A stretch of 64,000 nucleotides of DNA. Origin: Escherichia phage vB_EcoM-Pr121LW. Position 1 is the first letter of the stretch. Each line of letters opens with the position of its first letter. The DNA lies in the sequence record MH752840.1; one strand, written 5' to 3'. Of this stretch, positions 1,559 through 60,443 are shown one piece after another. A model generated the notes under the pieces. That model had not been told where the DNA came from and made no database searches. It was given only the letters and a program-made list of their open reading frames with translations. The position numbers were made by a program, and so were the translations under genes.

Positions 1559-2842
1559 TCATTCAAGCACCTCCCAAGTGTCTGGGTTAACATTTCGGAC
1601 GCAGATACCGACAGGGAATTGGTAGTTGTTGTCTTCTGTCCTTGCTTGGTATTTGAAGGTGACAAACTTGCCGATCATTTCCTGCATCCTGTCATAGCTA
1701 CGCTCCTCGTGCGTGCCTTTCATCTTCATTTTAACAACAACACCTTCCTTGTCAACACAGATAAGAACACCTTCATCATTCTTATCTTTCTCAACGTCAA
1801 TAACTTTCACCTCTGCGTCGTTGAACTTTTTCCATTTCAATGCTTCAGATGTTCGCTGACCGTACTCGTATTTACCGCAGAAATTACGCATGATAGTACC
1901 TTCATATCCTTCGGACATGAATATACCAACAGATTCTTCGCAATGATCAACTGTGTACGCAAGCTCTGCGTCAACAACCTTGATATGATCAAGCATCAGA
2001 GTGGTAACGGTATCCTCTGCATCCATAAGATCCTTGCAGCGTCCAGACTCTGTTTCTGGATCCCACCACACCTTGTCGCTAGGAATATCAAAAATGTGAT
2101 ACTCCAGATCGTAGCTACAGTACCCACCGTAACGCAAATCATCACGAACAGGCTCAACATCGACAGGAATATCTACCTTGTTGAAGTTTTTGTATGTTGA
2201 TAAGCCTGCCTTAATTGCGGCATGACGGCGTTTTTTATCTGCCTCATAGTCTTTATCGATCTCGGCCTGAATCTCTTCCTGTGTGCGCCACCGTTTAGCA
2301 AGAGACACTATTTTCTGCAAAGGAAGACCATGAATGTATAGTTCCCCATCAAGTTGTTTAATACCAGTGGTAGAATGGAAAGAACGAAGTTGCTCTAAAA
2401 GCTTTCCTTGAATAGGGTAGGACTTATTACCACGGGAAATAAATTTAGGCTCACCATTTTGGAAAACAACAAGCAGACGAAGGCCATCTAACTTACGCAA
2501 GATCCAGCAAGGTAATTTAAGTGCCTTGCCACGCTTCAGGTAGTCATGCACCAGCATGGGTAAAAGGTCAACACCCTGCTCGCAATCTTCCATGTTTTCA
2601 ACATACCCCAGACGGACTTGTTTTTCCCACTTGCTGATAGCCTCAAGCTCGGCCTGTTGCTCAGCTGTAGTCTCATTGGCACGACCTACGTTCTTAGGTG
2701 TGCATACCGTCTCTTTGTACTGCAATTTACCGTCAAGCTTGCCAAACTCTACGATAACCTTTTCGCCATCAGTGAATACTTTCCACTGTTGGTAGCTGCC
2801 ATCTTTGTTCAGTGCGTACAGTGTTGTTTTGATTTGATGCAT
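1559..2842 (-). CDS. ATP-dependent DNA ligase
   Basis: 427 aa; nucleotidyltransferase motif I KxDG (LRKLDGLR); size and motif order fit the phage ATP-ligase family. Confidence 0.75.
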   Translation of the reverse strand: MHQIKTTLYALNKDGSYQQWKVFTDGEKVIVEFGKLDGKLQYKETVCTPKNVGRANETTAEQQAELEAISKWEKQVRLGYVENMEDCEQGVDLLPMLVHDYLKRGKALKLPCWILRKLDGLRLLVVFQNGEPKFISRGNKSYPIQGKLLEQLRSFHSTTGIKQLDGELYIHGLPLQKIVSLAKRWRTQEEIQAEIDKDYEADKKRRHAAIKAGLSTYKNFNKVDIPVDVEPVRDDLRYGGYCSYDLEYHIFDIPSDKVWWDPETESGRCKDLMDAEDTVTTLMLDHIKVVDAELAYTVDHCEESVGIFMSEGYEGTIMRNFCGKYEYGQRTSEALKWKKFNDAEVKVIDVEKDKNDEGVLICVDKEGVVVKMKMKGTHEERSYDRMQEMIGKFVTFKYQARTEDNNYQFPVGICVRNVNPDTWEVLE

Positions 2843-3111: not shown

Positions 3112-3406
3112 TGCAGTCCTCCTTCTGTAGTAGGTCTTTTATAGGATAAACAAGTAAGTGTGGATCGGAATAACGTATAGTCTTATTCTGCCACACTATG
3201 AACTTTATTACAACCAAATTTACAATATCTTTATCACCATGTAGCCCAACACACACATTTGTCCATATTTTGTGGTTGAAGATCTTGCTATCGATGTAGA
3301 TTTTAGTGTCAAACTTATCTTCCATTCTACCTATAAGTTTGATCAGCTCCTTCATCTGGTCGCCAAACACAGCATCTTTTTCAAGATCTCTGGAATGCTT
3401 GTACAT
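3098..3406 (-). CDS. hypothetical protein
   Basis: 102-aa ORF co-oriented in the minus-strand block. Confidence 0.4.
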   Translation of the reverse strand: MYKHSRDLEKDAVFGDQMKELIKLIGRMEDKFDTKIYIDSKIFNHKIWTNVCVGLHGDKDIVNLVVIKFIVWQNKTIRYSDPHLLVYPIKDLLQKEDCNAVI

Positions 3407-3468
3407 AACTAACTACCTCGCTGCATACTTTCCATAATAAGTAAAGCCGGGATTACCCGGCTATGTTG

Positions 3469-4182
3469 TCAAATAGACTCTGTTACATCCTTGAAGCTCG
3501 AAGGCTTCATGATCTTACCTTTACTGTCAAGGAATATGATAACTTTATTACCGTTGTAGAACTCTTCCTTAGCAACAAAACCTTCGTAGCGACCACCAAA
3601 ACGACGCTCAAGATCTTTAATCTCCAACTCGATGAGTTGTTCAGCAGGCATATCTGCACTGGCACCGTGTGAATGCCGTAGATGGTTGATCCGTGCAAAC
3701 TTACTGTCATTAGATTTGAGAACCTTCCGCATCATCCCACACACATCGCCGCGAAGCTGGAACAGCAAAGCTGTTGACAACTCCGCTAAGCGGTAAGCTG
3801 ACGCTCTTTGCTTGGATGTGTTTTTCGCAGCGATCAGTGTATCATAGAACTCACCAATCTTGAACTTAAGACCTCGTGGATTATCAAACAGGTTTGACCA
3901 CTTTTCGTGATTGTCATTAACAAGATAGGCGGCATAACTTGTGACAACGTGAAGATCGCAGGCCTCTTTTAACAGGTGATCTCCACCATCACCTTTCTCC
4001 AGCTCTTCCAAAACCTCATTGAACTCTTCCTCAATGAAGCTAAGCTGTAATTCGAATGGTGTGTATGATTTTTTCACTTTAGCTGCCACACGGTTCCAGT
4101 TTTCCACCCAGTTGGCAGACCAAAGGTAGTTTTCAGGCTGAGACAGTTTTTCCAGGTTGTCGATCAGTTTAGTATTCAGCAT
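3469..4182 (-). CDS. MazG-like nucleotide pyrophosphohydrolase domain protein
   Basis: 237 aa; acidic EExxE ... ExxD helix motif (FIEEEFNEVLEELEKGDGGDHLLKEACDLH) resembling all-alpha NTP pyrophosphatases. Confidence 0.4.
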   Translation of the reverse strand: MLNTKLIDNLEKLSQPENYLWSANWVENWNRVAAKVKKSYTPFELQLSFIEEEFNEVLEELEKGDGGDHLLKEACDLHVVTSYAAYLVNDNHEKWSNLFDNPRGLKFKIGEFYDTLIAAKNTSKQRASAYRLAELSTALLFQLRGDVCGMMRKVLKSNDSKFARINHLRHSHGASADMPAEQLIELEIKDLERRFGGRYEGFVAKEEFYNGNKVIIFLDSKGKIMKPSSFKDVTESI

Positions 4183-4195
4183 TAAAGGTCTCCTT

Positions 4196-4957
4196 TTAAA
4201 GTTCCATAAAGTTTTCTACAGTTTCAATAAATGCTTTATCAGAGAAAGCGTCAACAGCACCGTTAAACCATACAGGGATCCCGCGATCCTCATATTGATA
4301 AAGGTCGCTACGTGAAATGCCACTTCCATCTGCACTCTGCGAGTCATACTTGTTTACAATCAGCAGTTTTGTGCCTTTACAAGTAGCAGGAAACAATTCC
4401 CAGTTAAAATTAATAACTGTGTTAGAACAACCTACCAGGATCACCATATCATTGCTTGTGAGAGATGTCAACAGGTCATACATGTCTGTATACTTAGGAG
4501 CAACCTCACCGAAGAACACTACATTAGGCTTAACCCAGGTATACTTGCCTGTATCTACCTCCGTATATCCGATATTTTTAATTACATCGTTACCTTCAGC
4601 ATCTTCGTAGGTGATTTCAGGCAAATACCCGTGGACATGTAAAATATCTTCATGTTTTACACCAGCACGCTCCAGCAAATCATCTACATTGGTGGTAAGG
4701 TTGATCACACGACCAGACCAGCGGGAATACCACTCAGCGATCCGAAGATGTGCAAGGTTAGGATCAACACTGCCCAGAGCTACACGACGTGCATTGTAAA
4801 AGTCATGCACCTTATAGTAGTTCTTGGCAAAGGTGTGGATGTTGCACACCTCATCGATGCTGAAATTCTCCCACATTGCAGTGCTACCAGATCGGAAAGT
4901 GGGAATACCAGATTCAGCGCTCAAACCGGCACCGGAGATAATAATCAGTCGTCGCAT
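4196..4957 (-). CDS. Sir2-family NAD-dependent protein (sirtuin-like)
   Basis: 253 aa; GAGLSAESGIPTFR, TTNVDDL..AG, HVHG and VVFFGE motifs; no CxxC zinc-ribbon pairs seen after the HG motif. Confidence 0.8.
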   Translation of the reverse strand: MRRLIIISGAGLSAESGIPTFRSGSTAMWENFSIDEVCNIHTFAKNYYKVHDFYNARRVALGSVDPNLAHLRIAEWYSRWSGRVINLTTNVDDLLERAGVKHEDILHVHGYLPEITYEDAEGNDVIKNIGYTEVDTGKYTWVKPNVVFFGEVAPKYTDMYDLLTSLTSNDMVILVGCSNTVINFNWELFPATCKGTKLLIVNKYDSQSADGSGISRSDLYQYEDRGIPVWFNGAVDAFSDKAFIETVENFMEL

Positions 4958-4965
4958 AAGTGTCC

Positions 4966-5316
4966 TCAGTAGATGTTTTGTTTAATCTCTATTCCAAACT
5001 TCTTGAATGAGTCAGCAGCAAGCATAAATTTACGAGCTGCCGATGGATTAGAAGTATGTACGAAAATCTTCACGTTGTCAATCACTGGAGGCTTACCGAA
5101 TACAAATTTTTCCTCCAACATGGATAGGCAATCGTATCCTTCGAATACTTCTCCTAGGTCGTTGTCCATATGCCACTCAGAAACGCGTCTGTAGAGCTTT
5201 CCCTTATCGTTAATAAAATCCATAAACTCTGAGGAATTCTTCAGCCAAATAGCGTCTGGGAGTCCATAATTTGACGGATCTCTCAAATCATCCAGCCACA
5301 CAATCCACTTCTTCAT
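4966..5316 (-). CDS. hypothetical protein (possible RNA-repair-associated small domain)
   Basis: 116-aa ORF between the Sir2 and RNA ligase genes, overlapping the ligase stop; function inferred from context only. Confidence 0.4.
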   Translation of the reverse strand: MKKWIVWLDDLRDPSNYGLPDAIWLKNSSEFMDFINDKGKLYRRVSEWHMDNDLGEVFEGYDCLSMLEEKFVFGKPPVIDNVKIFVHTSNPSAARKFMLAADSFKKFGIEIKQNIY

Positions 5317-6248
5317 TGCATATAGTCCTCGTTGTGGAAATAGTAGTCCAGTATCTCACGACGCTCCTGCTCTAATAAGCAATTCCACACATCTTCTGTA
5401 TAGTTGCTACGAATAAATTTTACCATACCGTAAAACTCTTCGTCAACACGTTTAAAGATATCATCATCCCAAATCTTCCAAGCTTTACCCCTCATTACTG
5501 CCTTCCGTGCCAGATAGTATGGAGACTTGATCTTCAGCTGCAGATCATAAGGGTAGTAAGGCTTACGAATCATATACCCTTCACCTCTTGTTTCTGCAGC
5601 TAATTCTTTTGCATAGCTGAACGGAATTTCACGCACAGTGTGAGGACGTTTTGCACCAAGGTATTTGGCAATCCCATCTAAAGCTGCTTCTGGTAGCATT
5701 ATTCCAGAATCATTATATCTGCAACCTATCAAATATGCGCCATGATCTTCCTGAACAATATGCGGATCTGAAGGGTGGCAAATTTCAAACATGAATGTCA
5801 TGTTTTCATTGCCCATAACCTTCTTGATAAGATCTAAATTACCACATTGCTCCTTGATGGTTTCTTTTGCGAGGTTACAATATGGGGAATCAAGAGACCC
5901 GGTTGTTGAGAACAATAGTTCACCTTTATGAGATGATACCACACCGAGGAATCCGTTCTTTTTCTCTACCGCAGTAACAAGTTTACTGTCCGGTAGGTTG
6001 GTGGAGTTTTCTCCTAAGTTGAATACTTTTGTGAAAGGCCATGCCACAACATTCCCCTCATTGCCAACAACAATACCTCGGCACTCCAGTAAACGCGGAG
6101 ACAAATGCCACAGATCGTTGTAGAATACTTTTCTGGCATATTTATAGATCTTTAATCCAAGATCTGGATAATACCGACTGGTTACAAGACCTTTGTCTAC
6201 TAGGTCATCTGCATTAAAATACTTCATCATACGTTCCTCATTTGTCAT
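5313..6248 (-). CDS. RNA ligase 1 (T4 RnlA-like)
   Basis: 311 aa; LSPRLLECRGIVV and FTKVFNLGEN match T4 Rnl1 N-terminal motifs as I recall them; KxNG motif I (EKKNGFLG). Confidence 0.8.
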   Translation of the reverse strand: MTNEERMMKYFNADDLVDKGLVTSRYYPDLGLKIYKYARKVFYNDLWHLSPRLLECRGIVVGNEGNVVAWPFTKVFNLGENSTNLPDSKLVTAVEKKNGFLGVVSSHKGELLFSTTGSLDSPYCNLAKETIKEQCGNLDLIKKVMGNENMTFMFEICHPSDPHIVQEDHGAYLIGCRYNDSGIMLPEAALDGIAKYLGAKRPHTVREIPFSYAKELAAETRGEGYMIRKPYYPYDLQLKIKSPYYLARKAVMRGKAWKIWDDDIFKRVDEEFYGMVKFIRSNYTEDVWNCLLEQERREILDYYFHNEDYMQ

Positions 6249-6291
6249 TTTGTCAGTCTATCCTGCCACACAAATAACCTAGTGTCAACAC

Positions 6292-6320
6292 TTGAAATTA
6301 ACAAAACAGTTAGGTATACT
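6292..6320 (+). promoter_or_regulatory. sigma70-like promoter (TTGAAA-N17-TATACT)
   Basis: Consensus-like -35/-10 hexamers with 17-nt spacer upstream of the kinase gene. Confidence 0.45.
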
Positions 6321-6348
6321 ATCATTAAAATTAAAACGGAGGATTGCT

Positions 6349-6759
6349 ATGTCTAAAATGCTATATATCGTGCGTGGTCTGCCAGGGTCTGGCAAATCAA
6401 CACTGGCAAATGCGCTATCTTTAGAAGGTCTGTATCCACATTTTGAGAATGACATGTTTTGGTATGACGATGACGGCAATTACAACTGGGATGCAAGTAA
6501 AGTAACACTCGCAGCAAAATGGTGCAAAGATAACGTAGAAGATATGATGCGTATGGGATACGACCGTATCGTGGTAAGTAATACGTTTACAAAAGAAAAA
6601 CATGTGCAGGAATATGTTGACATGGCAATCAGTCATGGGTATAGTTATACCGTAATCGTGGTTGAAAACCGCCACGGTAATAAAAGCATTCATGATGTTC
6701 CAGACAAGGTTGTGGATCGTATGGAACGCCAGCTTAAAAACTGCATTAAACTTAAATGA
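6349..6759 (+). CDS. P-loop polynucleotide kinase-like protein
   Basis: Walker A GLPGSGKST near the N-terminus; start moved to the ATG at 6349 behind a GGAGG RBS. Confidence 0.6.
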   Translation: MSKMLYIVRGLPGSGKSTLANALSLEGLYPHFENDMFWYDDDGNYNWDASKVTLAAKWCKDNVEDMMRMGYDRIVVSNTFTKEKHVQEYVDMAISHGYSYTVIVVENRHGNKSIHDVPDKVVDRMERQLKNCIKLK

Positions 6760-6766
6760 GGAATGT

Positions 6767-7321
6767 ATGAAATACTTTGTAACAAGCGATACGCACTTTC
6801 TCCACCAGCGGGTCATGGAGTTTGATTCATGTCAAAAACACAGATCTCAATATGATCACAATCTTGACAGTATGAATGCGGGAATCATCACCGAGTGGAA
6901 CTCCGTTGTGTCACCTGCAGACACTGTGTTCCACCTGGGAGATATTGCGTGCACTAATGATAAGAATATCAACAACTTACTTCCAGATATTCTAAATATG
7001 TTGAACGGACATATTATTCTTGTTCGTGGCAACCATGACACAAGGACGACTGTCAGAATTATGAAAGAGTTCGGTCATGAGGTTGTAGATTATTACGAGC
7101 TTCGCCACAACAAGAATTTGATCTGTATGAGCCATTACCAGTTTGCAAAGTGGAACAGAAAGCCTCACGGATCAGTCCAACTGTTCGGTCATGCTCACGG
7201 AACCACACAACAGTTGTTTGGCAGGCAGCTTGATGTCGGTTGGGATGTGTGGGGGAGACTCTTACCATTAGAAGAGGCATACCGTATTGCAATGAGTTTT
7301 GATATTGACAGCAGGGAGTAA
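6767..7321 (+). CDS. calcineurin-like metallophosphoesterase
   Basis: VTSDTHF, HLGDIAC, GNHD and GHAH motifs; start moved to the ATG at 6767 behind a GAGGA RBS. Confidence 0.7.
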   Translation: MKYFVTSDTHFLHQRVMEFDSCQKHRSQYDHNLDSMNAGIITEWNSVVSPADTVFHLGDIACTNDKNINNLLPDILNMLNGHIILVRGNHDTRTTVRIMKEFGHEVVDYYELRHNKNLICMSHYQFAKWNRKPHGSVQLFGHAHGTTQQLFGRQLDVGWDVWGRLLPLEEAYRIAMSFDIDSRE

Positions 7322-10236: not shown

Positions 10237-10308
10237 GCCCTGTTAGCTTAGTGGATAAAGCAGCGGCCTTCTAAGCCGTTGACACTGGTTCGAGTCCAGT
10301 ACGGGGTG
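10237..10308 (+). tRNA. tRNA-Arg (anticodon TCT)
   Basis: Hand-folded cloverleaf: acceptor GCCCTGT/ACGGGGT with two G-U pairs, anticodon loop CTTCTAA, T-loop GGTTCGAGTCC, CCA encoded. Confidence 0.6.
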
Positions 10309-10442
10309 CCAAGTTCTTTTTAATGTAGCTTACTTTAGCAGAGTAAATCTTCGGCAAGTGGCGGTAACCACTTTTACCGATACCTCATAGTTAGTGGTGA
10401 GAACACTAGCTATTTTAAAAAGAATTTAAATATTAGTATTTA

Positions 10443-10527
10443 GGTGAGTTAATTCCGTAGGGGTAGCGGGGCAGACTGTAAATCTGTTATCATTGCGATT
10501 CGGGTGGTTCGACTCCATCACTCACCA
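10443..10527 (+). tRNA. tRNA-Tyr (anticodon GTA), long variable arm
   Basis: Anticodon arm GCAGACTGTAAATCTGT and variable arm resemble E. coli tRNA-Tyr; acceptor GGTGAGT/ACTCACC; CCA encoded. Confidence 0.65.
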
Positions 10528-10644
10528 CCAAATTTATATTTTTAAATGCATAAATTATACAGATAATGGCATTGATATTTATCGTCGTTTATACTAGTCA
10601 CTAACTGCTCGAAAATCAGTGTCATTATCAGTATTGTTTATAAA

Positions 10645-10732
10645 AGAGGGTAGGGAGCAATGGTGCTCAAGCGGTCTTGAAAACCGTCCCGTTGAGGATG
10701 ACTCGATGATGGTTCGATTCCATTACCCTCTG
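10645..10732 (+). tRNA. tRNA-Ser (anticodon TGA), long variable arm
   Basis: Acceptor AGAGGGT/ACCCTCT, anticodon loop CTTGAAA, T-loop GGTTCGATTCC, CCA encoded. Confidence 0.6.
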
Positions 10733-10833
10733 CCATATTGTTGACCTTGTAATTAAGCGAAAGCCGGAAGCAGAACCGGATTATCAAATGTTACAGTCGT
10801 CATCGCCGACTAGCAACATTGTCAACATACTGA

Positions 10834-10930
10834 GCTAGGTAAGCCCTTTGGCAAGGGCGAGGATTTTTAATCCTGAAAATAGACGAGGTAGTCGTTGAAT
10901 ACATAGGTGGTTCGATTCCACCACCTAGCA
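10834..10930 (+). tRNA. atypical tRNA-like element (anticodon possibly TTT; about 29-nt variable region)
   Basis: Acceptor GCTAGGT/ACCTAGC, D-arm GCCC..GGGC and T-arm GGTGGTTCGATTCCACC fold, but anticodon stem is 4 bp plus a mismatch and total length about 97 nt. Confidence 0.3.
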
Positions 10931-10937
10931 CCTTTTT

Positions 10938-11010
10938 GCTGATGTAGCACAATTGGTAGTGCAATTGATTTGTAATCAATAGGTTGCAGGTTCAAGTCCT
11001 GCCATCAGCA
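10938..11010 (+). tRNA. tRNA-Thr (anticodon TGT)
   Basis: Acceptor GCTGATG/CATCAGC, D-stem GCAC/GTGC, anticodon arm ATTGA-TTTGTAA-TCAAT, T-arm GCAGG-TTCAAGT-CCTGC, CCA encoded. Confidence 0.7.
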
Positions 11011-11014
11011 CCAT

Positions 11015-11086
11015 GGCCCTGTAGCTGGAAGGTTCAAGCAAGCGACTCATAATCGCCAGACGGTGGTTCAATTCCACCCAGGGCCA
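11015..11086 (+). tRNA. tRNA-Met or Ile2 (anticodon CAT)
   Basis: Acceptor GGCCCTG/CAGGGCC, anticodon loop CTCATAA, T-loop GGTTCAATTCC, CCA encoded. Confidence 0.65.
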
Positions 11087-11100
11087 CCAAATAGTAAATA

Positions 11101-11174
11101 CTCCGCGTAGCTCAGCTTGGTAGAGCGCCTGATTTGGGATCAGGAGGTCGAGTGTTCGAATCACTCCGTGGAGA
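11101..11174 (+). tRNA. tRNA-Pro (anticodon TGG)
   Basis: Acceptor CTCCGCG/CGTGGAG, anticodon arm CCTGA-TTTGGGA-TCAGG, T-loop GTTCGAATC, CCA encoded. Confidence 0.7.
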
Positions 11175-11223
11175 CCACTTTCAGTTATACTTTAAACATA
11201 TACACACAAAAGGAACCTTTAAA

Positions 11224-59972: not shown

Positions 59973-60443
59973 TTACTCCGGTTCAGGATCTGGGTAATCT
60001 TCAATAATAAAGGTCCATCCGTTCCGCTTAGCCTCAGACTTATACTCAATCTCCTTCATTGCGAACTCTAACTGATTTTTAGCCGGAATACATGCCGGAG
60101 AATCATCAATCCAAATATCCGGGTAGATATCAAACTGCGCCAGATAGGCTGCCTTCTGAACACCGCCAGTATAAAACACACCAACATCGAGCTCCTTGCG
60201 CCAATACTCAATGTCCACGTTGTCTTGAGTGATGAATCGGGAAGTCACAAGGTATACTGTCCACCCTTCCTTTTTCAAGTCCCTAATCAGGCGGGAGAAG
60301 ATGAAAGGACTCGCATTAAATGTTCCATCAAAGTCAATGGCAATGATGTGTGTGCCGTGGCGAGTCTCGTATGGATTGCTTGTGGTAAGATTACTGTAGT
60401 TAAAAGGAACTTCTTCCCCGCAGTAGCTGTAGTCCATATTCAC
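59973..60443 (-). CDS. HAD-superfamily phosphatase
   Basis: Motif I IAIDFDGTF (DxDGT), motif II LVTSR, motif IV IWIDDSP. Confidence 0.55.
   Translation of the reverse strand: MNMDYSYCGEEVPFNYSNLTTSNPYETRHGTHIIAIDFDGTFNASPFIFSRLIRDLKKEGWTVYLVTSRFITQDNVDIEYWRKELDVGVFYTGGVQKAAYLAQFDIYPDIWIDDSPACIPAKNQLEFAMKEIEYKSEAKRNGWTFIIEDYPDPEPE

Follow-up and report, generated by a model that had tools for sequence, protein, structure and literature searches.

The window, a 64,000-nucleotide stretch of DNA from Escherichia phage vB_EcoM-Pr121LW (MH752840.1), is 99.8% identical to Escherichia phage Murica, a Vequintavirus, and contains a gene whose Murica counterpart is gp203, annotated 'Sir2'. The gene is the third in a minus-strand operon that encodes, in order, an RnlA-like RNA ligase, a cREC protein, the Sir2 protein and a MazG-like pyrophosphatase, and in which the genes overlap or abut. 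The features of the locus, in window coordinates, are the following:

3445..3462, minus strand: intrinsic terminator-like hairpin closing rnlA-cREC-sir2-mazG; the Murica record has a terminator too
3469..4182, minus strand: MazG-like nucleotide pyrophosphohydrolase, 237 aa, last gene of the operon (PHROG 671, E 1.3e-21; the Murica annotation agrees)
4196..4957, minus strand: Sir2-family gene, 253 aa, zinc-less, class III-derived (ORF, Pfam, PHROG, PDB, AF2, Foldseek)
4517..4630, minus strand: codons 110-147, the former zinc-ribbon module, predicted to form a beta-hairpin with a D/N-[IV]-G-Y motif (sequence, AF2)
4631..4633, minus strand: codon of the catalytic His109 (HG motif), invariant in 54 aligned homologues and aligned with the catalytic His of CobB
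4682..4696, minus strand: codons 88-92, TTNVD, the counterpart of sirtuin TQNxD with Gln replaced by Thr89 (alignment)
4966..5316, minus strand: cREC (cyclic-phosphate processing receiver-like), 116 aa (PF20274, E 2e-14, 54.5 bits, cut-off 27)
5313..6248, minus strand: T4 RnlA-like RNA ligase, 311 aa, first gene of the operon (PF09511, E 7e-15; PHROG 562, E 8.7e-66)
6352..6759, plus strand: P-loop kinase (AAA_33, polynucleotide-kinase-like), divergent from the operon (PF13671, E 1.7e-10; PHROG 2071, and PHROG 505 'polynucleotide kinase')
6767..7321, plus strand: calcineurin-like metallophosphoesterase (PF12850, PF00149; PHROG 547, E 1.9e-52)
10237..11177, plus strand: phage tRNA cluster, seven genes between two tools, ~3 kb beyond the kinase and metallophosphoesterase; context only

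The sir2 reading frame runs from an ATG at 4957 to its stop codon, included, at 4196. A GAGGA Shine-Dalgarno sequence 6 nt upstream of the ATG shares bases with the stop codon of the gene before it, and the start of the cREC gene overlaps the stop of the RNA ligase. This 116-aa cREC reading frame had been left unassigned in the earlier note; its PF20274 match identifies it, and its acidic residues D9, D10, D13, D51 and D53 are conserved in four phage lineages. The Mydovirus counterpart of mazG matches PRA-PH (PF01503). The start codon of the kinase gene was taken from the Murica annotation. RNA ligase, cREC, kinase, MazG and calcineurin-like phosphoesterase all lie within 2.5 kb of sir2, which bears out the earlier placement of the gene in an RNA-repair operon and corresponds to the neighborhood of the clade described by Iyer et al. 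It is plausible that the tRNAs of the cluster are clients of the repair module. The product of Murica gp021 (59973-60443, minus strand), labeled 'HAD-like', had no Pfam match and matched only PHROG families of unknown function; as an equivalent of the HAD_SAK_2 partner found in T5-like phages it is unsupported by Pfam or PHROG.

The protein contains the Sir2 NAD-binding signature first read from the ORF: GAGLSAESGIPTFR at residues 9-22, TTNVDDL..AG at 88-99 and HVHG at 107-110. Its only Pfam match is SIR2 (PF02146, E 6.9e-28, 98.2 bits against a cut-off of 24, profile positions 1-178 of 180), and PHROG 2162 'Sir2' matches over the full length (E 1.5e-108). These matches, PF02146 being far beyond chance, place the protein in the Sir2 family and not in an unrelated Rossmann family. 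Homologues in Vequintavirus, Mydovirus, T5-like and Phapecoctavirus phages share 45-93% identity with it, and it is a member of PHROG 2162 and of the Iyer 2022 phage sirtuin clade.

The AF2 model of the Sir2 protein (pLDDT 90.4) has a Rossmann core and a small domain, as do CobB and SIRT5, with a ribbon segment of equal length. The best solved relatives by sequence are E. coli CobB (1S5P, E 3e-21) and SIRT5. The same two proteins are the top Foldseek matches, with query-normalized TM scores of 0.72-0.75 (E. coli CobB, wild-type and Ac2 chains), and the best 50 of 282 PDB matches (E <= 0.001) are all lysine-deacylase sirtuins: CobB, SIRT5, Sir2Af1/2, Sir2Tm and SIRT2. Sequence and predicted model alike place the protein nearest to CobB and SIRT5, which are class III deacylases, and not to defense sirtuins of the ThsA/DSR type. 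It has the GAGxSxxSGIxxFR, PNxxH, NxD, HG, FGE and FY..RR (Tyr/Arg) motifs in common with CobB and SIRT5; unlike them, it has no zinc ligands, is phage-encoded and lies in an RNA-repair operon. It is not a canonical deacetylase-type sirtuin, as the earlier note had said, and not an ordinary CobB orthologue: all NCBIfam CobB cut-offs (NF040867, NF001753 and others) are missed widely, with 122.6 versus 243, 104 versus 320 and 93 versus 318 bits.

Canonical deacylase sirtuins (classes I-IV and U) have a Cys4 zinc ribbon, which is missing here. The Sir2 protein has three cysteines in total (38, 177 and 193) and no CxxC. Between His109-Gly110 and Phe149-Gly150-Glu151 (FGE) there is no Cys or His, so that a cryptic Cys4 or Cys3His site is impossible; the reported absence of CxxC pairs after the HG motif extends to zero Cys/His in residues 110-148. 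A cryptic zinc site was rejected also on conservation, as only Cys38 is conserved in all lineages, and Cys177 and His41 are not. The segment itself persists. AF2 predicts strands at 110-118 and 124-128 with block-mean pLDDT values of 95-96, and the D/N-[IV]-G-Y motif of the ribbon-derived hairpin is conserved. Zinc-containing relatives have the pattern C..C....IGY....C..C, with the same IGY motif, in an equally long segment; the nearest of them, P0135, is encoded on a cellular contig and adjoins LplA. The zinc-less state is a secondary loss inside a CobB-like lineage, in which the beta-hairpin of the ribbon was retained. CxxC is absent from the former ribbon segment in all 111 homologues (of 120) in which the pattern search located the segment, and from six other phage lineages, including the T5-like, phAPEC8, Mydovirus and jumbo-phage versions. 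The loss of the ribbon cysteines spans the whole phage clade (1011 phage records).

The NAD+-binding and catalytic residues are retained. G9, A10, G11, S16, N90, D92, H109, G110, F149 and E151, which align with CobB residues, are invariant among 54 homologues of 50-93% identity. T89 is invariant as well, and the canonical Gln of TQNxD is absent: where CobB has TQNID, the clade has TTNVD. The clade further differs from CobB in GTS to GCS, VYP to VIN, and Ala76 to an invariant Cys38. Among 141 cluster representatives, the motif Gln is present in 76 of the 91 with ribbon cysteines versus 7 of the 50 without: the two losses co-occur. Loss of the GTS Thr also accompanies loss of the ribbon cysteines. 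The protein has the Tyr-x-x-Arg of class III sirtuins. Y54 and R57 of its FYNARR sequence align with SIRT5 FYHYRR and are invariant in alignment A1, and R57 is replaced by Leu in jumbo phages PHA46 and G17. We take the counterparts of Tyr54 and Arg57 to be SIRT5 Y102 and R105, the pair that binds a distal carboxylate, an anionic group. An active site remodeled in this way (Gln to Thr, Thr to Cys, Ala76 to Cys, VYP to VIN) speaks in favor of a substrate that is not a standard acyl-lysine.

We are nearly certain that the gene, which is gp203 of the rV5-like phage Murica, belongs to a clade that is found mostly in phages and derives from class III (CobB/SIRT5-type) sirtuins. This clade is without all four ribbon cysteines and has kept the ribbon as a metal-free beta-hairpin; the NAD+ pocket, the catalytic residues and Tyr54/Arg57 are kept and three positions are changed. 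With the same near certainty, the gene is co-transcribed as rnlA-cREC-sir2-mazG, and this operon makes up an RNA (tRNA) break-repair module with the divergent kinase and metallophosphoesterase genes beside it.

The sir2 clade occurs in 1011 of 50,697 phage records, and at least four distinct gene arrangements place it next to genes for RNA-end or ADP-ribose processing. In Vequintavirus and Mydovirus it is found with RnlA, cREC, the kinase, the metallophosphoesterase and MazG, the order being rearranged in Mydovirus. T5-like phages have it beside a HAD_SAK_2 'Swiss-army-knife' RNA-repair phosphatase (29 of 69 loci), and in jumbo phages PHA46 and G17 its neighbors are a Nudt16-like Nudix gene and cREC, with an Acb1-like 2H protein in PHA46 only. 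The zinc-less member P0126, on a T4-like phage contig, lies between RlaP and NADAR, and an HD protein is also near. NAMPT and other NAD+ salvage genes are located 0.5-7 kb from sir2 in Mydovirus, PHA46 and other loci. In phAPEC8, cREC is ~30 kb from Sir2, and the matching region of a related phage has an annotated RNA ligase gene. About one quarter of the sampled loci (phAPEC8-like and others) have no recognizable repair partner beside Sir2.

Much of this was already described. Iyer, Burroughs, Anantharaman and Aravind (Viruses 2022, section 3.7.3; PMC9503650) reported a 'distinct clade of viral sirtuins' in predicted NAD+-utilizing RNA-repair neighborhoods, and our neighborhood survey reproduces their three context types. 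Their type 2, prototyped by Escherichia phage V5 and Proteus phage Mydo, is the same family and neighborhood as in the window (T4-like RNA ligase, cREC, nucleotide kinase, MazG and calcineurin-like phosphoesterase). The suggestion of 'NAD-dependent processing linked to RNA repair' in the earlier note matches both the conserved gene neighborhoods and a published prediction. Skliros et al. 2016 (PMC5107563) described Sir2/CobB proteins of Vibrio phages phiSt2, phiGrn1 and KVP40 without zinc ligands in the small 'finger' domain, named T5-like and other phages as carriers of Sir2, and put forward a model in which phage Sir2 activates acetyl-CoA synthetase by deacetylating acetyl-lysine. The Vibrio phage protein is, like ours, a CobB-homologous zinc-less phage sirtuin; that of Vibrio phage K567 has 49.5% identity over 79% of the query and likewise no CxxC. 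Unlike the window sir2, the Vibrio phage genes do not adjoin an RNA ligase. Both the zinc loss and the link to RNA repair were thus known computationally, and the novelty that had been attached to this protein does not hold: zinc loss in phage Sir2 was in print in 2016, and the exact rV5 neighborhood and a mechanism in 2022. What we have here is a correct re-discovery. To PMC9503650 our analysis adds the clade-wide loss of the cysteines, the motif Gln and GTS Thr that are lost along with them, the invariant Cys at the position of CobB Ala76, and the context with RlaP and NADAR.

Iyer et al. (PMC9503650) were the first to propose, as a prediction, that the sirtuin removes an RNA 2'-phosphate with NAD+ in the manner of Tpt1/KptA. 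We tentatively favor this explanation, in which the phage sirtuin may be a functional analogue of the RNA 2'-phosphotransferase Tpt1/KptA. Host ribonucleases would leave 2',3'-cyclic phosphate and 5'-OH ends. The cyclic phosphate would be opened by cREC and/or the metallophosphoesterase, the 5' end would be phosphorylated by the kinase and the break sealed by RnlA. The sirtuin would then strip the left-over 2'-phosphate (or a terminal 2'/3'-phosphate). In this step a phosphate oxygen would attack C1'' of NAD+ with release of nicotinamide, after which the ribose 2''-OH, activated by His109, would attack phosphorus. Both proposed steps would mirror normal sirtuin chemistry, in which a nucleophile attacks C1' and the 2'-OH then attacks in turn, forming a 1',2'-cyclic intermediate. 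The resulting ADP-ribose cyclic phosphate would be opened by cREC, and its pyrophosphate split by the MazG-like enzyme (Nudix in jumbo phages). A cyclic-phosphate enzyme and an NDP-pyrophosphatase are what the Tpt1 product ADP-ribose>p would be expected to need (the Tpt1 mechanism is summarized in PMC11417386).

The likeness to Tpt1/KptA lies in the pathway context, tRNA ligation after 2',3'-cyclic phosphate breaks. Tpt1 has the fold of the ADP-ribosyltransferase superfamily, unlike the Sir2 protein, which has a sirtuin fold; homology to Tpt1 is absent, the sole Pfam match being SIR2 and the fold matches being sirtuins. Since the two folds are unrelated, the phage protein is a functional analogue at most, not a family member. 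Other points weigh against the Tpt1-like reading. Throughout the sir2 clade the proteins are acidic (pI 4.6-6.1, net charge -6 to -20), whereas Tpt1 is a basic protein. The other operon proteins are mildly acidic too, including the RNA ligase, and so is the kinase; the acidity of the clade therefore counts weakly against an RNA substrate and is not decisive. By analogy with bacterial Pnkp, the kinase and metallophosphoesterase of the operon could heal the ends without NAD+. T4-type Rnl1 needs no 2'-phosphate, and the E. coli host encodes KptA. The sampled loci without a repair partner count against this reading as well, as does the lack of a KptA-for-Sir2 swap: no KptA was found at the Sir2 position in the cREC loci of Aeromonas 65.2, Acinetobacter AM24 and Bacillus Mater, which are without Sir2 over the region inspected; most neighbors there are unrecognizable, and these loci tell little either way.

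The main rival, which we consider rather unlikely, is that the protein deacylates protein lysines as CobB does (as a deacetylase, desuccinylase or delipoylase), needs no structural zinc for this, and resets the acylation of host or phage proteins during infection. Possible targets would be acetyl-CoA synthetase, as proposed for the Vibrio phage Sir2 (PMC5107563), or the repair enzymes themselves. The closest sequence and predicted-structure neighbors of the phage protein are all protein lysine deacylases, CobB and SIRT5 foremost, which favors this activity over a Tpt1-like one, and the FGE loop and Tyr/Arg pair are as expected of a desuccinylase-type enzyme; this loop, Tyr54/Arg57 and the catalytic His, Asn and Asp are invariant in the aligned homologues. 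The AF2 model still has the ribbon hairpin, which makes up one wall of the peptide cleft, and an acidic pI is ordinary for an enzyme that acts on proteins. Nevertheless, the protein falls far under all NCBIfam CobB/deacylase cut-offs, the TQNxD Gln that is near-universal in deacylase sirtuins is replaced clade-wide, GTS and VYP are altered, and the host has CobB already. A general deacylase role also fails to explain why sir2 is linked again and again, in independent arrangements, to genes for RNA-end and ADP-ribose processing.

That linkage could instead reflect a counter-defense module that makes or destroys small molecules derived from NAD+ or ADP-ribose, with the sirtuin as an NADase or small-molecule ADP-ribosyltransferase and with the cREC, Nudix/MazG, 2H/Acb1-like and NADAR enzymes acting on its products or substrates. 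Such a module would blunt nucleotide-based immune signaling and have no part in RNA repair; we regard it as improbable. PMC7824862 and PMC9503650 argue that partner domains of this kind act mostly on soluble ADP-ribose derivatives. The Nudt16-like Nudix and cREC genes of the jumbo phages, the Acb1-like 2H phosphodiesterase of PHA46, the NADAR and HD proteins of the T4-like contig and the nearby NAD+ salvage genes would all suit it. However, the partners in the window are classic RNA healing and sealing enzymes (ligase, kinase, phosphoesterase), T5-like phages pair sir2 with an RNA-repair phosphatase, a free-running NADase would undercut the phage's own NAD+ salvage, and there is no similarity to known NADase-type defense sirtuins in PADLOC (E <= 0.01) or Pfam. 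We find it scarcely credible that the phage carries the protein for defense or superinfection exclusion, as an NADase like ThsA, DSR or SIR2-HerA, or that it is a toxin that ADP-ribosylates proteins in the way of SirTM. Many defense-associated SIR2 NADases and SirTM lack a zinc ribbon, and the one point in favor of this reading is that superficial common absence. The Sir2 protein has in common with defense SIR2 NADases (ThsA, DSR1/2, SIR2-HerA, SIR2-Ago) and SirTM the superfamily fold and the use of NAD+. Unlike them, it is a small single-domain protein, here of a lytic phage, with deacylases as its nearest relatives and structural neighbors. PADLOC defense-system profiles gave no match at E <= 0.01 and neither did Pfam SIR2_2 (PF13289), so the defense-type assignment was rejected. 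No sensor domain and no HerA, TIR/SLOG or Macro partner was recognized in the Murica annotation or the neighbors scanned; an operon-linked Macro domain, the mark of SirTM, is thus absent among the neighbors, as PMC9503650 also pointed out for this sirtuin clade. The analogy drawn in the earlier note with zinc-less defense sirtuins (ThsA, DSR, SirTM) accordingly falls away.

Returning to the Tpt1-like reading, it is possible, if doubtful, that the phage sirtuin truly is an RNA-phosphate ADP-ribosyltransferase/phosphotransferase that converged with Tpt1. By losing the zinc ligands, the Gln and the GTS Thr jointly and acquiring the invariant Cys38 in the pocket, the clade would then have opened the acyl-lysine tunnel to RNA phosphate. 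Sir2, cREC and MazG/Nudix would form a portable three-enzyme cassette that takes 2' or terminal phosphates off RNA and afterwards clears away the ADP-ribose cyclic phosphate.

Our literature search, which left most subscription journals outside, found no experiments on phage Sir2, on cREC or on a sirtuin acting on an RNA 2'-phosphate. The phage sirtuin is a moderately interesting experimental target. Carriers of the clade, among them T5-like, rV5-like, phAPEC8-like and jumbo phages, serve in therapy and as model systems. If the protein is a deacylase instead, structural zinc would prove dispensable for the function of a sirtuin, and phages would be seen to reprogram host acylation. If the Tpt1-like reading is true, the sirtuin superfamily would gain a new reaction class and its first member shown to act on a nucleic-acid phosphate, and the NAD+ salvage genes of phages would be tied to RNA repair. 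These phages would then have a yeast/plant-style NAD+-dependent branch of tRNA repair, with which they escape anticodon-nuclease defenses.

Positions 3400-6800 of the window match Escherichia phage Murica (NC_041871/KT001917), an rV5-like myovirus of 135 kb belonging to Vequintavirus, end to end at 99.8% identity, and more than 100 further rV5-like phages at 90-98%. The Murica record names the ORF under study gp203, "Sir2 (NAD-dependent deacetylase)". Its gene is one of four on the minus strand (RNA ligase, cREC, sirtuin and MazG-like) that overlap or abut, and the locus contains the following features.

1559-2842, minus strand: ATP-dependent DNA ligase, just downstream of the operon
3445-3462, minus strand: terminator hairpin 3' of the MazG-like gene
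3469-4182, minus strand: MazG-like pyrophosphohydrolase (PHROG 671)
4196-4957, minus strand: Sir2 ORF, 253 aa
4842-4844, minus strand: codon of Cys38 in the sirtuin
4966-5316, minus strand: cREC, a cyclic-phosphate processing receiver domain (PF20274, E 2e-14)
5313-6248, minus strand: RnlA-like RNA ligase (PF09511, E 7e-15)
6352-6759, plus strand: polynucleotide-kinase-like P-loop kinase, divergent from the operon
6767-7321, plus strand: calcineurin-like metallophosphoesterase, divergent from the operon
10237-11177, plus strand: seven tRNA genes, beyond the metallophosphoesterase

The ribosome-binding site of the sirtuin (GAGGA, 6 bases 5' of the start) shares bases with the stop codon that ends the preceding gene. 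The neighboring 116-aa ORF that the earlier note left unassigned is the cREC, which keeps the acidic residues expected in a receiver-like active site. Mechanical ORF calls for the two plus-strand enzymes begin at upstream TTG codons. The kinase would then have 155 aa (extension 6292-6351) and the phosphoesterase 219 aa (extension 6662-6766), the latter overlapping the kinase gene by ~100 nt, while the annotated ATG codons at 6352 and 6767, both with Shine-Dalgarno sequences, give 135 and 184 aa. Among the tRNA genes, the tRNA-like gene at 10834-10932 (plus strand) is unusually long at 97-99 nt; ARAGORN reads its anticodon as four bases, "atcc", and names no amino acid, Rfam scores it as tRNA at only 37 bits, and Murica labels it tRNA-OTHER (Asp|Gly). 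The tRNA at 10443-10527 (plus) is seen by Rfam only (39 bits) and not by ARAGORN, and the tRNA-Ser (tga) at 10645-10735 (plus) by ARAGORN only and not by Rfam. About 18-25 unannotated GenBank "Campylobacter phage" records (MG0656xx) carry the operon at 96-100% identity to E. coli rV5-like phages, and are probably contaminating coliphages or mislabelled entries.

At the sequence level the Sir2 assignment is secure. All three Sir2 motifs quoted earlier are present, the ORF covers the entire PF02146 profile (E 6.9e-28), and it matches PHROG 2162 with an E-value of 1.5e-108. The zinc ligands are absent as the earlier note had described: the only cysteines of the protein are at 38, 177 and 193, there is no CxxC, and the 38 residues that separate the HG motif from VVFFGE are free of both Cys and His. 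The sequence itself thus excludes that the ribbon hides a cryptic zinc site, which had been named as a possible objection.

The family is present in 1011 of 50,697 phage records searched by tblastn, among Vequintavirus, Mydovirus, T5-like Demerecviridae, Phapecoctavirus, schizoT4-like Vibrio phages and several jumbo phages, and in 951 protein clusters of a metagenome-scale database at E <= 1e-5. No CxxC occurs in the ribbon segment of the 111 sequences, of the 120 best homologues, in which a pattern search located the segment, nor in that of translated representatives of six other lineages. An alignment of 54 sequences shows invariant NAD-binding and catalytic residues (G9, A10, G11, S16, F21, R22, N90, D92, H109, G110, F148, F149 and E151). 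Y54, R57 and R58 are also invariant and align to the anion-binding pair Y102/R105 of SIRT5, and so is G130 in the D/N-[IV]-G-Y motif at the tip of the former ribbon. Compared with CobB and other sirtuins, the phage clade has GCS throughout in place of GTS, and TTNVD with an invariant Thr89 in place of TQNxD. Cys38, invariant and the sole cysteine kept across every lineage of the clade including the jumbo phages, replaces CobB Ala76, which lies in the pocket and is mutated in the engineered CobB of structures 6RXM and 6RXQ.

Against 1.84 billion cluster representatives, a full HMMER scan had 5496 matches, of which the best 150 were aligned. Among these, the zinc-containing relatives have the pattern C..C....IGY....C..C in a segment as long as that of the phage clade, which implies that the clade kept the hairpin and lost the ligands only. 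Across 141 full-length representatives, 43 have lost both the ribbon cysteines and the motif glutamine, 76 neither, and 22 are mixed; the two losses are associated (Fisher p 3e-16, uncorrected for shared ancestry). From these alignments, the two losses should be read as travelling together in this lineage and not as independent events. The nearest placeable zinc-containing relative, P0135, lies on a cellular contig, two genes downstream of an LplA lipoate-protein ligase gene (L071, 2060-5427). This contig mistranslates under table 11 and probably uses an alternative genetic code.

Sequence comparison puts E. coli CobB (1S5P, E 3e-21, or 6e-30 with the family profile), human and zebrafish SIRT5, and archaeal Sir2Af1/2 nearest among solved structures. 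An AlphaFold2 model built with 54 homologues is confident (pTM 0.88, mean pLDDT 90.4) and predicts residues 110-128, the former ribbon, as a well-ordered beta-hairpin. The top Foldseek matches in the PDB are CobB, SIRT5, Sir2Af and Sir2Tm (E down to 8e-19), with a query-normalised TM of 0.72-0.75 against E. coli CobB wild-type and Ac2 chains. The NCBIfam models for CobB and deacylases match, with scores under half the curated cut-offs. Sequence and predicted fold thus mark the protein as a divergent offshoot of the class III, CobB-like sirtuins. The suggested analogy with zinc-less defence NADases was rejected, as neither the PADLOC models (ThsA, DSR, SIR2-HerA and others, E <= 0.01) nor the Pfam defence-type family SIR2_2 match and the nearest structures lie elsewhere; a defence-type NADase is very unlikely.

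We surveyed 62 IMG/VR and six GenBank loci by scanning ORFs with small HMMs from the partner proteins, and confirmed the main context types by Pfam. In Vequintavirus and Mydovirus (~15 loci) the sirtuin accompanies RnlA, kinase, metallophosphoesterase, MazG, ATP-dependent DNA ligase and usually cREC; the Mydovirus module differs in gene order and has all genes on a single strand. In 14 of 69 loci the DNA ligase follows Sir2 within 1.5 kb; in a Mydovirus (L004, 6777-8081) its start abuts the Sir2 stop. In T5-like phages (29-32 loci) a tightly conserved arrangement places downstream of Sir2, in order, a 60-aa ORF, the phosphatase HAD_SAK_2 ("Swiss-army-knife RNA repair", E 1e-20) and a tandem pair of DUF7415 paralogues (e.g. 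HildyBeyeler, L002, 6001-8324). In the jumbo phages PHA46 (a Salmonella phage) and G17, Sir2 is followed by a Nudt16-like Nudix protein and cREC, and PHA46 has an Acb1-like 2H phosphodiesterase 5' of Sir2 and NAMPT nearby. A metagenomic T4-like contig (L072, 5917-9415) carries, in order, the RNA-repair-associated nucleotidyltransferase RlaP, a zinc-less clade Sir2, NADAR, two unknown ORFs and an HD_4 protein. The scan saw no recognisable partner beside Sir2 in phAPEC8-like and some other loci; in phAPEC8 the cREC lies ~30 kb away, and the matching region of its relative EF1-1 contains an annotated RNA ligase gene. Across these loci the sirtuin repeatedly, though not universally, adjoins enzymes for RNA 3'-end phosphates or ADP-ribose derivatives.

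The PHA46 gene directly upstream of the sirtuin (L007, 4513-4959) is labelled "RNA ligase" and matches the anti-CBASS 2H family Acb1 (PF23474, E 1.7e-16). In Mydovirus (L004, 1-1130 and 12037-12558) and PHA46 (L007, 1-2739) the sirtuin has genes for NAD+ salvage (NAMPT, ribose-phosphate pyrophosphokinase, cytidyltransferase-like) and NADAR at a distance of 2-7 kb; none occur in the corresponding part of the window.

What is established for the sirtuin is its fold, an intact NAD+ pocket and catalytic His, a remodelled substrate pocket, the operon and recurrent partners. The finding re-discovers what had already been described computationally, as the published case in the rV5-type neighborhood is exactly this locus (PMC9503650); the same group defined the cREC domain in a 2021 jumbo-phage paper (PMC7824862). 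The RNA-repair option of the earlier note was the right one, with the sirtuin in an RnlA-cREC-MazG operon and repair-type partners recurring across phages. The function is also poorly characterised, as that note held: we found no experimental work on a phage sirtuin of this clade, or on cREC, in the full-text literature searched, which leaves out most subscription journals.

We regard removal of an RNA 2'-phosphate with NAD+, as by Tpt1/KptA and as first predicted in PMC9503650, as the single most likely mechanism, at somewhat short of an even chance. In Tpt1 chemistry (summarised in PMC11417386) a substrate oxygen attacks C1'' of NAD+, followed by attack of the ribose 2''-OH; sirtuins use the same two steps, and the phage enzyme may do likewise. 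The product would need a cyclic-phosphate enzyme and an NDP-sugar pyrophosphatase, which is the second basis for this reading. Against it speak the acidic character of the clade (pI 4.6-6.1) and the presence of a kinase and a metallophosphoesterase that could heal ends unaided; nor was KptA found in the slot of Sir2 in the cREC loci of Aeromonas 65.2, Acinetobacter AM24 and Bacillus Mater. Every characterised relative, moreover, is a protein deacylase. The main rival is a zinc-independent, CobB-like deacylase, which we consider somewhat less likely than the Tpt1-like reaction; Skliros et al., who noted the missing zinc ligands of phage Sir2 and listed the gene in T5 and other phages, favoured a deacetylase role (PMC5107563). 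Counter-signalling through small-molecule ADP-ribose or NAD+ appears improbable. The sirtuin is still well worth testing at the bench, since a few simple assays would tell a new class of sirtuin reaction from an ordinary deacylase.
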